Source of the DNA: Candidatus Woesearchaeota archaeon
GTDB lineage: Archaea > Nanobdellota > Nanobdellia > Woesearchaeales > JAZDKJ01
Reading direction: 5' to 3'
Assembly: GCA_043803105.1 (NCBI GenBank)
Contig: JAZDKJ010000010.1
Location: forward strand, 1 to 64,000
Length of the DNA stretch: 64,000 bases
The notes beneath the pieces were generated by a model. That model saw only the letters and a program-made list of their open reading frames with translations, was not told the DNA's origin and searched no databases. Positions 1,102 to 3,646 of this stretch are shown here, piece after piece. Positions within the stretch are counted from its first letter, which is position 1; each line of letters begins with the position of its first letter. Position numbers and translations under genes: made by a program.

Positions 1102-1256
1102 GCCTCGGTAGCTTAGACATCAGTGCCTCCTTTAGCACGATGAAGCAACAGGTGGAGCGTGTGGCTGTTATTCGCCATTTTGGCCGAAAAGAGACCACAA
1201 GGTCAGCAGAATACAGTAGAGGAGCTGTTTGCTGAATTCGAGTCTGCTCCGAGGCG
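1102..1256 (+). tRNA. tRNA-Asn(GTT) with three introns (15/16: 1117-1148; 37/38: 1171-1193; 53/54: 1210-1236)
   Basis: After removing three hairpin inserts bounded by BHB-like motifs: acceptor GCCTCGG/CCGAGGC, D-stem GCTT/GAGC, anticodon stem TGTGG/CCACA with loop CT-GTT-AA, T-arm AGCAG-TTCGAGT-CTGCT. Confidence 0.92.
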
Positions 1257-2039
1257 TTCCTCATTTTCCAGTTTTTCAAGCATTAACAACCTGTCCTGAA
1301 TTGTCGTACCGGGTGGTACATGCCCAATTTTTTTCCACAATTCGATTCTACTCAAGTGATTAGGATTCATAAAACCAATTGTACTTAACCATAGACTAAG
1401 CGTTTTCACTCCATTCAACTGCATGTAGTACGACGAAAGTTGAGACTTGTTTCTTTGTTGTATCCTCTGCCCGCGATGAACAGGAAAGCCTAATATTTTC
1501 AAAGTTGATGTAACGAAATCCCATAACTCTTGATTACAAGTTTGGTAATCAACAACAGGATAGTAGTTAATCAACTTATGTCTATTCTTGAAAACAACTG
1601 AGAAGTCCGTGTCTGCAAGACCTCTCAGAAATGCAATTTTTAGGTTCATCGGCGCTTTTAGGATAATTCTTGGTGGAGGACTGTGACTTTTTGATCCAAC
1701 CGGCATTCCGCAAGAAAATTGCATAAAAGAGTGGATTGCTTTTGAGTTCAAAGTAAGTTTAATGCTCCCATGACCTTCACAAATCTTCGGAGTTCGTCGA
1801 AATAGATGACGAAAAAGAGGAACTACACAGGTCTTACACCAAATAAGATCATTTATTGGATGGCCATCATATTCTATCCTATACTCAAAAGGTCTTTTAA
1901 CCAAATGCCCATCACCCATATGTATTCCCAGGAAATAGGCTAAATTGCTATCCAATTTCCCTGGAACCTTAGTAAGAGTAATTTTATCGTTCTTACTGTA
2001 ACGCACATCTCTAAGGTTTATAGGGATGATTAAATCCAT
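1203..2039 (-). CDS. Free-standing double-motif LAGLIDADG endonuclease
   Basis: Motifs LAYFLGIHMGDG and FLRGLADTDFS; no intein splicing motifs seen. The 3' end runs antisense into tRNA-Asn. Confidence 0.88.
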   Translation of the reverse strand: MDLIIPINLRDVRYSKNDKITLTKVPGKLDSNLAYFLGIHMGDGHLVKRPFEYRIEYDGHPINDLIWCKTCVVPLFRHLFRRTPKICEGHGSIKLTLNSKAIHSFMQFSCGMPVGSKSHSPPPRIILKAPMNLKIAFLRGLADTDFSVVFKNRHKLINYYPVVDYQTCNQELWDFVTSTLKILGFPVHRGQRIQQRNKSQLSSYYMQLNGVKTLSLWLSTIGFMNPNHLSRIELWKKIGHVPPGTTIQDRLLMLEKLENEERLGADSNSANSSSTVFC

Positions 2040-2079
2040 TAGAAGCCTCTGACGACACTTATTATTAAGTTCTGCGTAT

Positions 2080-2091
2080 AAATGTCCAGTG
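2080..2091 (-). promoter_or_regulatory. CACTGGACATTT upstream element, copy 1 (LAGLIDADG gene)
   Basis: Identical 12-mer also at 9169-9180 (-) and 59632-59643 (+), each about 10 nt upstream of a TATA-like box. Confidence 0.6.
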
Positions 2092-2110
2092 AAATTTTCA
2101 AAAAAAGATT

Positions 2111-2126
2111 GTCTGCTCCGAGGCGT
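2111..2126 (+). repeat. Duplicated 3' end of tRNA-Asn (16-bp direct repeat, att-like)
   Basis: GTCTGCTCCGAGGCGT at 1242-1257 and 2111-2126. Confidence 0.9.
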
Positions 2127-2141
2127 ATTTCTTGCATTACT

Positions 2142-3326
2142 CTACATATAGCTGTCAGTTTTCAATCCCTTGGTAGAAATCAAATCTATTCCCAGGTCTG
2201 AGTCATTAAATCTTTCACATATGTGCTCTATTGCATTAGATTGCAAGTACTTTATTGTTCTCTCAAGCCCGTTGTAGATTCCTGCAGGTTTTGAGTTTCC
2301 ATGCCCTTTGACAAGGTAACCGTTTATTCCAAGCAAAGGAGCTGCATTGTAGTTGTCTGGATTGAACATACTTTTTAGTTTTGTATACGTCCCTGAGAGT
2401 TTGAAGAATTCCTTTGAAAGGAAGGCAAACGTTAATCCTGCCACATCAAAAATTGCTTTTGGTTTTCTTGGGATTCTCGCAAGGATTGCCTTAGGGCTGA
2501 TTTCTGCTTGAGCAAATGCAACAAAGCTTTCCAATATCCCTTCCATCGTTTTGAGATTTGTGTTGCCTACAAAACCTTCAGCCAGTATGATGTCTGCCTT
2601 GTTTTCAAACATGCCATGTTTTCCCTCAATAAAACCTATATAATTAAGCTTGTTCTTTGATTTTTCGTTATATTTTTCAATAAGATTGGATAGTTCTGCC
2701 ACAAATTTGCTTCCTTTGTGTACCTCTTCCCCGTTGGATAATATTGCTAATCTTGGGTTTTCCTTTTTCAGTACATCTTTCGCGTATACATCAAACAGTA
2801 TGCCATAAATAAGAACCTGCTCTGGTTGTGTGTCAACAGTTGCCCCAACATCCCCGAACAATATATGCACTCCCTGTCTGGTTGGTAGTTCTGCCACAAG
2901 TGGGGGGTATTTTATTGGAACGCCCTTTATCAAACCTATTTTCTTCTTGCCATAACCTATGAGAGAACCGGTTTCTCCCATTGAGTAAGCGCAATTGATT
3001 TCTCCTCTTTTTAGATAATCAAGCATGACATGAACTGATGTTTCCTTGATTCTTTGTGTTCTGGAGCTCCTGGCGCTTCCGAGAACCTCATCAACCGAAA
3101 TTGTCCAAGCAGGACAATCGATAACTGTTATCCTCTTGGTTGGGACTTTGTGAGCTTTTAGGCCTAATGATGCCTCTGCTGATCTGCCAAAAAGGACGAA
3201 ATCAATTTTGGGATAGGATCCTTGTAATTGAAGTAAGGCCTGTGCCACTCTCTGGCTTGGAAGAGTGCCCTGATTTCTTTCTCCACCATTTATGTCGATT
3301 CCAAGGATTATTCTGTCAAGTGCCAT
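2142..3326 (-). CDS. plsX: Phosphate acyltransferase PlsX-like protein
   Basis: N-terminal IILGIDINGGE, SMGETG, DVGATVD, LSNGEEVHKG, GFIEG, GFVGNTNLKTMEG, APLLGING-VKGHG. The upstream extension in the ORF track overlaps tRNA-Ile, so the start is set at 3326. Confidence 0.85.
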   Translation of the reverse strand: MALDRIILGIDINGGERNQGTLPSQRVAQALLQLQGSYPKIDFVLFGRSAEASLGLKAHKVPTKRITVIDCPAWTISVDEVLGSARSSRTQRIKETSVHVMLDYLKRGEINCAYSMGETGSLIGYGKKKIGLIKGVPIKYPPLVAELPTRQGVHILFGDVGATVDTQPEQVLIYGILFDVYAKDVLKKENPRLAILSNGEEVHKGSKFVAELSNLIEKYNEKSKNKLNYIGFIEGKHGMFENKADIILAEGFVGNTNLKTMEGILESFVAFAQAEISPKAILARIPRKPKAIFDVAGLTFAFLSKEFFKLSGTYTKLKSMFNPDNYNAAPLLGINGYLVKGHGNSKPAGIYNGLERTIKYLQSNAIEHICERFNDSDLGIDLISTKGLKTDSYM

Positions 3327-3422
3327 TCTTTGTGAGATGACATCTGGCTTCTTAAATATTGTTGTTCCCGAGAGGACAAAAGAAAAATGTTTATAAATGG
3401 TCTGGCATTCTAATGGAGCATT

Positions 3423-3542
3423 GGGCCCGTAGCTTAGCCTGGTGTTGTGCCCGAATGATAATCGGGCGGTCCGGAGTTCAAATAGTTGGCGACGAAGTCG
3501 GCAACGACCGAAAGCGTCAGCTTGACTGTCTCCGCGGGCCCA
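3423..3542 (+). tRNA. tRNA-Ile(GAT) with a T-loop intron (59/60: 3483-3528); D-stem atypical
   Basis: Acceptor GGGCCCG/CGGGCCC-A, anticodon stem CCCGA/TCGGG with GAT, T-arm CGGAG-TTCAAAT-CTCCG after intron removal; TTTATAAA at 3390-3397. Confidence 0.8.
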
Positions 3543-3629
3543 TTTTTCTTTCATTTTTATGACTGGGGGACTCCGGTCCGCAGACTTGGAGTCGCCCTCG
3601 GGATCAAGGAACAAGACCCTTGGTGGGAA

Positions 3630-3646
3630 TCTCCGCGGGCCCATTT
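3630..3646 (+). repeat. Duplicated 3' exon of tRNA-Ile (17-bp direct repeat)
   Basis: TCTCCGCGGGCCCATTT at 3529-3545 and 3630-3646. Confidence 0.9.

Follow-up and report, generated by a model that had tools for sequence, protein, structure and literature searches.

Why should the 3' end of a transfer RNA (tRNA) gene occur twice near one end of an archaeal contig, with a single endonuclease-like gene between the two copies? The question is raised by the first 64,000 nucleotides (nt) of contig JAZDKJ010000010.1 from a Candidatus Woesearchaeota archaeon (assembly GCA_043803105.1), referred to here as the window, in which a heavily interrupted tRNA-Asn(GTT) gene (1102-1257, plus strand) is followed by an open reading frame (ORF) on the minus strand that encodes a 278-residue, double-motif LAGLIDADG protein (1203-2039), and then by a second copy of the tRNA 3' end. 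The answer that we favor, and consider probable, is that the locus is a selfish homing cassette that targets the ends of tRNA genes and has an intron as its partner.

The duplicated segment is the 16-mer GTCTGCTCCGAGGCGT, which covers tRNA positions 59-73 plus one base and is present in exactly two copies in both the window and the 1.56-Mb, 13-contig genome, one within the working tRNA (copy 1, 1242-1257, plus strand) and the other a relic of the tRNA 3' end (copy 2, 2111-2126, plus strand), with no third copy in window or genome at up to two mismatches. The 853 base pairs (bp) between the copies contain no other non-overlapping ORF of at least 40 residues. The group I intron reading was ruled out, as Rfam returned neither a group I intron nor any other match at the locus, and the intein reading was ruled out because the ORF has no surrounding host protein frame. 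The stop codon of the ORF lies antisense within the tRNA, T-runs directly follow the complete tRNA end at 1257, and copy 2 is 15 nt from the stop of a PlsX-like gene (2142-3329, minus strand; FA_synthesis, Pfam PF02504, E = 6.9e-49) that forms the native flank on the far side. A sequence-only reading of this DNA, made by a model, had described the recurrence of the tRNA-Asn 3' end and the antisense end of the ORF inside the tRNA, and both descriptions are exact; its statement that only a LAGLIDADG ORF and its promoter lie between the copies, with no integrase, intein or group I intron features, agrees with the ORF listing, Pfam and Rfam. The idea that the repeat is a chance match or an assembly artifact unrelated to the ORF draws on the location of the locus only 1.1 kb from the contig end, but 0.01 chance matches are expected per window, two matches were seen in 0 of 100 shuffles, and the same architecture recurs in independent assemblies, so that we give this explanation next to no credence.

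Identification of the tRNA depended on three intervening sequences, one in the D-loop (about 1115/1123 to 1143/1155, plus strand), a canonical one at 37/38 (1172-1194, plus strand), and a 27-nt insert in the T-arm at 53/54, between the 5' strand of the T-stem and the T-loop (1210-1236, plus strand, placed from the cloverleaf), which is 5 nt upstream of repeat copy 1. After these were removed in silico, with every D-loop boundary tried, ARAGORN called tRNA-Asn(GTT), and it is this call that places the gene at 1102-1257 and gives the 53/54 insert its length; a custom intron-tolerant detector recognized the acceptor GCCTCGG/CCGAGGC and the T-loop TTCGAGT. The unedited segment 1102-1257 gave no tRNA with ARAGORN (with or without introns) or Rfam (gathering and E-value thresholds), and none was called elsewhere in the window, because these tRNAs are too interrupted for the standard finders. 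The genome encodes an EndA catalytic domain at C4:37141-37398 (PF01974, 96.8 bits). As a separate observation on this genome (G000, 96% complete), ARAGORN with introns allowed finds only nine tRNA genes, and most of its tRNAs seem to carry noncanonical or multiple intervening sequences.

The AlphaFold2 model of the protein (predicted local distance difference test score 92.6, predicted template modeling score 0.88) has the pseudo-symmetric two-fold alpha-beta-beta-alpha-beta-beta-alpha fold, with two LAGLIDADG helices at residues 31-43 and 131-142, each of which ends in a conserved acidic residue. All 20 homologues aligned share G38, G42, D43 and G44, as well as F137, L138, G140, D143, T144 and D145, in the motifs GxxxGDG and FLRGLADTDFS. 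A Foldseek search of the PDB gave 144 matches at E of 0.001 or less, headed by the TliVMA intein endonuclease domain, I-DmoI and I-Tsp061I (E from 7e-9 to 2e-8, target template modeling (TM) score about 0.7; for I-DmoI, E 7e-9 and TM 0.72), and the best PDB match by sequence with phmmer was also I-Tsp061I (2dch, E = 0.0035). From its sequence and model, the protein is predicted to be a monomeric LAGLIDADG enzyme with two motifs, both of which retain their acidic residues. The family has in addition a C-terminal helical extension of about 40 residues that is specific to it. In the same alignment conservation stops near residue 260, at the tRNA boundary, and the last 18 codons and the stop are therefore read-through into the antisense strand of the tRNA. 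Of the 21 relatives considered here, nine have a precomputed PF14528 assignment, and P0012 has PF05204 instead.

The promoter region of the ORF (2058-2091, minus strand) consists of a TATA-like stretch at 2058-2069, 19-30 nt ahead of the ATG, and, farther upstream, a motif (GTCCAGTG in plus-strand letters) at 2084-2091. The GTCCAGTG motif is found on the ORF-promoter strand, up to 330 nt beyond the ORF start, at 56 of 117 homologous loci, and at one on the opposite strand. In the genome, a TATA box with (A/T)TGTCCAGTG about 15 nt after it occurs at 12 sites (window positions 2084-2091, 9173 and ~59639, and nine others), and a divergent ORF begins 38-52 nt from the motif at eight or nine of these 12. 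Since the motif is common to divergent host ORFs, it is a host-type promoter element and not one specific to the cassette, and the TGTCCAGTG motif is probably a conserved promoter-upstream element; this general occurrence upstream of promoters ruled out GTCCAGTG as a cassette-end signal or as the start of a small RNA.

Is the position at a tRNA end a property of this one copy or of the family to which it belongs? The family was examined at 134 loci, consisting of 29 from a search of 61 genomes of the order, 25 on other homologous contigs, and the best 80 of 257 metagenome-contig relatives, all oriented with the ORF on the minus strand. Left out of the set were L022 and L024 (matches inside frames of 888 and 1232 residues), L004 (paralogue D, below) and five genome-search matches without a locus, and broken ORFs with misplaced ends (L009, L013, L023, L027, L060, L074 and L089) were scored as having no tRNA. 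For the 119 loci in which 130 nt or more follow the ORF stop, a tRNA end was placed by ARAGORN between -100 and +120 nt from the stop in 60, compared with 10 of 115 in the control at the ORF start; 41 of the 60 are antisense and meet the ORF with their 3' end, 17 share its strand and meet it with their 5' end, and two are "giant intron" calls. When a home-made intron-tolerant detector was added to ARAGORN, a tRNA end was found at the ORF stop in 84 of 119 loci and at the ORF start in 14 of 130; the loci are mutually related, and such tests therefore overstate the association. A first genome scan with a home-made tRNA search gave 53 matches against 69 in the reversed control, and a stricter version validated five tRNAs genome-wide. 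The complete tRNA is always on the stop side of the ORF.

The family is also sorted by tRNA type. The nearest-neighbor enzyme (below 90% identity) has the same anticodon label in 26 of 71 cases, while with shuffled labels the mean was 3.7, the maximum was 12, and 0 of 1000 trials reached 26, with the reservation that the labels, taken from ARAGORN, are noisy and that vertical inheritance adds to the clustering. The closest relatives with resolved tRNAs (L066, L067, L068, L069, L072 and L073, at 35-45% identity) all abut tRNA-Asn(GTT). The homologous contigs are labeled as Woese-, Nano-, Aenigmat- and Micrarchaeota. The comparative predictions of the sequence-only reading hold up here, in that homologues are firmly tied to tRNA ends and grouped according to tRNA identity, in taxa that fit the DPANN setting it had named.

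The displaced tRNA end recurs as well. Exact repeats of a tRNA end beyond the ORF start are present in L001 (the window locus, 16 nt), L017 (23 and 17 nt), L019 (20 nt) and L056 (20 nt), and, among 69 metagenome loci with a control of 1 of 56, in L086 (13 nt) and L137 (12 nt), so that exact copies are confined to a minority of the family; with mismatches permitted, 12 of 78 loci exceed the best score of the reversed-target control. Repeat lengths across the loci range from 12 to more than 40 nt, and several relics begin at T-loop position 54. Decayed copies occur in L010, L071 and L058 at 60-90 nt from the ORF start, a distance that is 71 nt in the window, and these decayed far copies indicate that the partial copy is a decaying relic kept together with the native outer flank. 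The order is mirrored in L137, which has a tRNA promoter, a 12-nt copy of the 5' end of tRNA-Gln, the promoter and ORF, and then the complete tRNA-Gln.

The relics also bear on a different reading, in which the endonuclease gene lies within one very long archaeal-type tRNA intron (1242-2110), with copy 2 as the true 3' exon and copy 1 as an internal duplicate. Because the copies are identical, the mature tRNA would be the same under both readings, and likewise for a neighboring tRNA-Ile considered below; in L121 and L137, ARAGORN places the ORF within tRNA introns of 799 and 965 nt, respectively, by eye the L121 ORF appears to lie in an intervening sequence with inverted repeats at its borders, and LAGLIDADG genes such as those for I-DmoI and I-Tsp061I do occur in archaeal rRNA introns. 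However, the tRNA is already complete at 1257, where T-runs follow, the ORF reads antisense to it from a promoter of its own, in place of the sense ORF of an intron-encoded enzyme (an arrangement that L121 may have), the far copy is decayed in L010, L071 and L058 and is therefore unusable there as an exon, and L137 resolves by hand to a complete tRNA-Gln plus its 12-nt relic, which leaves the long-intron explanation very unlikely. Locus L121 itself, from a metagenome (oriented positions 1376-2258), has a sense LAGLIDADG ORF within the 799-nt intron of the ARAGORN call, and by eye the intervening sequence lies near the anticodon stem of a long-arm tRNA; it may be a tRNA intron that carries an endonuclease gene.

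The next question is whether the 53/54 insert has any connection with the endonuclease gene. Among tRNAs that passed the same validation, 15 of the 47 whose 3' end abuts a family ORF have 17-34 nt inserted immediately ahead of the T-loop, as do four of 59 comparison tRNAs, which comprise 0 of 13 with the 5'-end layout and four of 46 other tRNAs from the same loci, one of these four adjoining a broken family ORF (Fisher p = 0.0016, for loci that are not independent). The tRNA-Asn genes beside the closest relatives L066, L068, L069, L072 and L073 have 53/54 inserts, and the inserts share a design in which an AA(G/A) start is followed by a hairpin and then by a stretch complementary to the preceding exon. 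A pattern search for initiator tRNA matched 31 of 61 related genomes, and the flanks were searched with the family hidden Markov model. The initiator tRNA is without an insert in 28 and has a 53/54 insert (24, 26 and 30 nt) in three, each from a different family, and all three of these have a family ORF by the 3' end, two antisense and abutting and one on the same strand about 90 nt off. Of the insert-less initiator tRNAs with at least 1.1 kb of downstream flank, one of 26 has a family ORF and 25 have none (3/3 versus 1/26, Fisher p = 0.001, again among related loci that are not independent); at one further initiator tRNA without an insert, a family ORF lies 5' of the gene. In the case of the tRNA-Gln loci L096, L127 and L137, where the ORF is upstream, an insert of the same design is located about 10 nt from the 5' end, beside the duplicated segment. 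An intron in the target gene therefore co-occurs with a neighboring endonuclease gene, as it does in collaborative homing.

The genome contains four copies of the family, the window gene and paralogues B, C and D. The end of paralogue B overlaps the 3' end of an intron-bearing tRNA on the other strand by a single base, and paralogue C (L003, G000 C10:101435-102133) is directly upstream of an RNase HII gene. Paralogue D (L004 991-2160; G000 C13:44916-46085) is a 389-residue ORF in which a LAGLIDADG_3 domain is fused to 73 residues that duplicate the N-terminus of GlmS and are 50% identical to the complete GlmS encoded immediately downstream; because that downstream GlmS is complete and there is no C-terminal extein, paralogue D is not an intein, and its sequence identifies it as a putative endonuclease gene with a duplicated gene end in a protein-coding host gene. 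As to paralogue C, a LAGLIDADG gene is likewise directly upstream of RNase HII in another family of the order (L145, G008 C7), the LAGLIDADG genes of L003 and L145 overlap or touch the RNase HII gene, and in G008 the insert-bearing initiator tRNA is just upstream of the LAGLIDADG/RNase HII pair.

Family matches are found in 19 of the 61 genomes of the order, several with internal stops, and none in the same-genus genome G001 (84% complete). The number of copies per genome is variable, with paralogues at different tRNAs, and the family thus has the patchy distribution, multiple copies and decayed copies of a mobile element. This distribution is relevant to the proposal that the LAGLIDADG protein is a domesticated host factor of tRNA genes, acting in termination, processing or regulation, and not mobile at all. 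Its constant position and polarity at tRNA ends would suit such a role, as would a promoter motif held in common with host genes. A host factor would hardly be expected in so few genomes of the order and not in the congener, in variable and paralogous copies at different tRNAs, some of them broken by stops; moreover, the relic duplications mark insertion events and the catalytic acidic residues are invariant, and we regard domestication as highly improbable.

How, then, might the cassette have come to be where it is? We suggest that the candidate cassette is a unit of about 870 bp, comprising a free-standing LAGLIDADG gene with a host-type promoter in the 3' part of tRNA-Asn(GTT), in which the stop side of the ORF abuts the complete, working tRNA and the displaced original 16-bp 3' end would remain beyond the promoter side, next to the native flank. 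Across DPANN the family would follow the same plan, with the stop side at a tRNA end, antisense at a 3' end or sense at a 5' end, and one tRNA type per clade. The enzyme would cut an unoccupied tRNA gene in the arm beside the insertion point, and double-strand-break repair from an occupied allele would then bring in the endonuclease gene along with a new terminal segment to replace that of the tRNA. A short ORF-less insert, here at 53/54, would often come along, and by breaking the recognition site it could protect the occupied allele, which would make it an archaeal-intron counterpart of collaborative homing. The model put forward by the sequence-only reading is partly supported. The comparison of loci largely bears it out, with the anatomy, the fold, the tie to tRNA ends, the sorting by tRNA type, the recurrence of relics and the pairing of intron and endonuclease gene being observed here, and with cleavage of DNA by the enzyme, the position of the cut, movement by homing and protection by the intron being steps that we infer. 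Its expectation that homologues would be associated with tRNA-end duplications holds for several loci, the exact duplications being those of a minority. Its suggestion that the 53/54 intron makes the new allele resistant to cutting draws real support from the correlations in abutted and initiator tRNAs, and fails as a general rule, as 32 of the 47 abutted tRNAs have no 53/54 insert; the intron is therefore not a general immunity device, and another route is needed for those 32.

That last result is one of several that weigh against the homing reading, together with the relatedness of the loci, the noisy anticodon labels and the home-made detector already described. At L173 an initiator tRNA without an insert has a family ORF 380 nt downstream. 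The repeat in the window begins at position 59, and not at position 54 or the 53/54 junction, and in L017 an extra T-loop insert is present in the relic and absent from the working tRNA. The sole Pfam match of the window protein is to LAGLIDADG_3, at 17.4 bits, under the 22.5-bit cut-off; among the paralogues, B (21.4 bits) is also below it, and C (30.1 bits) and D (50.2 bits) are above. An empty allele of the tRNA-Asn/PlsX locus was not found, G001 at 84% completeness having no useful DNA or PlsX match; the tRNA-Asn 3' end had no match in G001 at up to three mismatches, and an exact 30-mer over repeat copy 2 and its flank was not found in the metagenome contigs. Finally, the region of tRNA-Ile at 3423-3646 has the same order of insert, end copy, cargo and relic as the cassette and is without an ORF, and this layout is seen too in two loci of G001 described below, L038 and L036. 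Such ORF-less inserts with the same duplication layout mean that the duplication needs no LAGLIDADG gene in cis.

The tRNA-Ile(GAT) gene (3423-3542, plus strand) is 1.4 kb from the cassette and is called by ARAGORN only after removal of a 46-nt insert behind the T-loop (3484-3529), and its 17-nt end (3529-3545) recurs at 3630-3646, past an 84-nt non-coding insert. It also affects the annotation of the PlsX-like gene, because the PF02504 match covers residues 114-472 of a 500-residue frame (2142-3644, minus strand) whose 5' extension to 3644 runs antisense over tRNA-Ile; this extension is unlikely to be coding, and the gene therefore probably starts near 3329. The tRNA-Ile insert ends in a 24-27-nt motif (window 3596-3622) that is found with 100% identity in at least four places in G001 (including L035, L036 and L038), a congener that otherwise has no DNA similarity. 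In L038 the motif is between a tRNA and a 13-nt copy of the 3' end of that tRNA, and in L036 it is part of a 35-nt duplication at the 3' end of a protein-coding gene, to which it gives a new C-terminus; the motif may be a small mobile element that targets gene ends. Five other tRNAs of G000 (C6:449376-449584, C6:371654-371900, C6:316521-316759, C6:221050-221251 and C8:113780-114015) have an exact copy of their first 14-17 nt located 70-120 nt upstream, after a TATA-like box, with no ORF, and each 5'-end copy is followed by one of two conserved hairpins. These ORF-less features may represent cassettes that have decayed or shrunk to miniatures, or may point instead to a distinct mode of insertion in which gene ends are duplicated.

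A separate mechanism of that kind is the main rival to homing. Under it, the cassette was placed by insertion machinery acting in trans, either of the tyrosine-recombinase type at a tRNA att site or of a type that duplicates gene ends, and the LAGLIDADG gene either rides along as a passenger or arrived afterwards. Integration by an integrase classically leaves the 3' end of a tRNA as a direct repeat. The 17-nt duplication around the non-coding insert at tRNA-Ile, the 13-nt and 35-nt duplications around small inserts with a common motif in G001, one of them in a protein-coding gene, and the ORF-less 5'-end duplications at several G000 tRNAs all point to machinery of this kind. In Caldiarchaeum, a 1.8-kb element with a predicted recombinase is reported to lie between a tRNA fragment and a full-length tRNA (PMC3293823). 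On the other side, neither an integrase nor any ORF besides the LAGLIDADG gene is present between the repeats, so that the locus does not have the recombinase of an integrative element; the LAGLIDADG gene is the only cargo common to the 134 loci, where it has a fixed polarity and tight boundaries; and the repeats vary in length. In addition, the clades of the enzyme track tRNA identity, which is expected if the enzyme itself picks the site. Taking both sides together, placement in trans seems to us unlikely.

If the homing reading is right, the locus and its roughly 130 relatives provide a testable system in which an endonuclease gene, an ORF-less tRNA insert and a displaced-end relic travel together. 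More broadly, we suggest tentatively, as something possible rather than probable, that LAGLIDADG genes at tRNA ends drive the spread of short noncanonical archaeal tRNA introns, with an intron at 53/54 in the T-arm or near position 10 in the mirrored 5' layout, the end copy and the gene forming one homing unit, the intron serving as immunity, and the displaced ends and ORF-less mini-inserts being its debris. This would give a concrete route of arrival for heavily interrupted tRNA genes and for scattered tRNA fragments, it would carry collaborative homing beyond phage group I introns into the protein-spliced introns of archaea, and it would contribute compact enzymes that naturally target conserved sequences of tRNA genes. 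That interruptions shield tRNA genes from invading elements is a long-standing idea. A full-text literature search, which covered neither subscription journals nor supplementary files, found no paper describing LAGLIDADG genes at DPANN tRNA ends, and the abstract of a 2026 preprint on Asgard tRNAs states that the route by which noncanonical introns arrive "remains open".

Among characterized proteins, the nearest comparators are the archaeal enzymes I-DmoI and I-Tsp061I, which have the same fold as the window protein, with two LAGLIDADG helices that each end in an acidic residue. They differ in being encoded in the sense direction within rRNA introns, whereas the window gene is free-standing, outside the tRNA and antisense to it, and their sequence identity to the window protein is about 20%, with the C-terminal extension being added in the window family. 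A comparator for the replacement of a gene end is atp6 of the fungus Allomyces, where a mobile mitochondrial endonuclease ORF reportedly brings a replacement gene end and leaves the displaced terminal segment as a duplicate. The likeness is in the placement of an endonuclease gene in the end of a host gene, and paralogue D would follow the same logic with GlmS; the differences are that in Allomyces the host gene is protein-coding, the ORF is said to be fused in frame, and the setting is an organelle.

Free-standing homing endonucleases in tRNA regions are represented by SegB of phage T4, a GIY-YIG enzyme whose gene is located, like the window gene, in a tRNA region, in this case a tRNA gene cluster, and whose target is in that region (PMC2988022). 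It differs in enzyme family, in its phage host and in having an intergenic target, and the passages of that source that were consulted mention no tRNA-end duplication or intron partner. In the tRNA-Thr(GGU) region of Caldiarchaeum subterraneum, a tRNA fragment, a 1.8-kb element and an intron-bearing tRNA occur in succession, and the authors tie intron gain and scattered tRNA fragments to a mobile element (PMC3293823). As in the window, a fragment of a tRNA end and a complete tRNA with an extra intron flank the inserted element, though the Caldiarchaeum element is present in six copies and has a predicted DNA recombinase as its cargo, and the 0.85-kb insert in the window has one LAGLIDADG gene. 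The closest counterpart to the proposed partnership is that of F-CphI with the ORF-less group I intron of cyanophage psbA, in which the intron reportedly blocks self-cleavage and owes its mobility to the enzyme (PMC6083498, citing Zeng et al. 2009). The partners there are a self-splicing group I intron in a phage protein-coding gene and an Endo VII-type enzyme, and in the window they are a short, presumably protein-spliced insert of archaeal type in a cellular tRNA and a LAGLIDADG enzyme, with a relic left behind and with protection by the intron being putative. In both cases, a free-standing endonuclease gene is located beside its target or putative target, and an intron, here the 53/54 insert, co-occurs with it.

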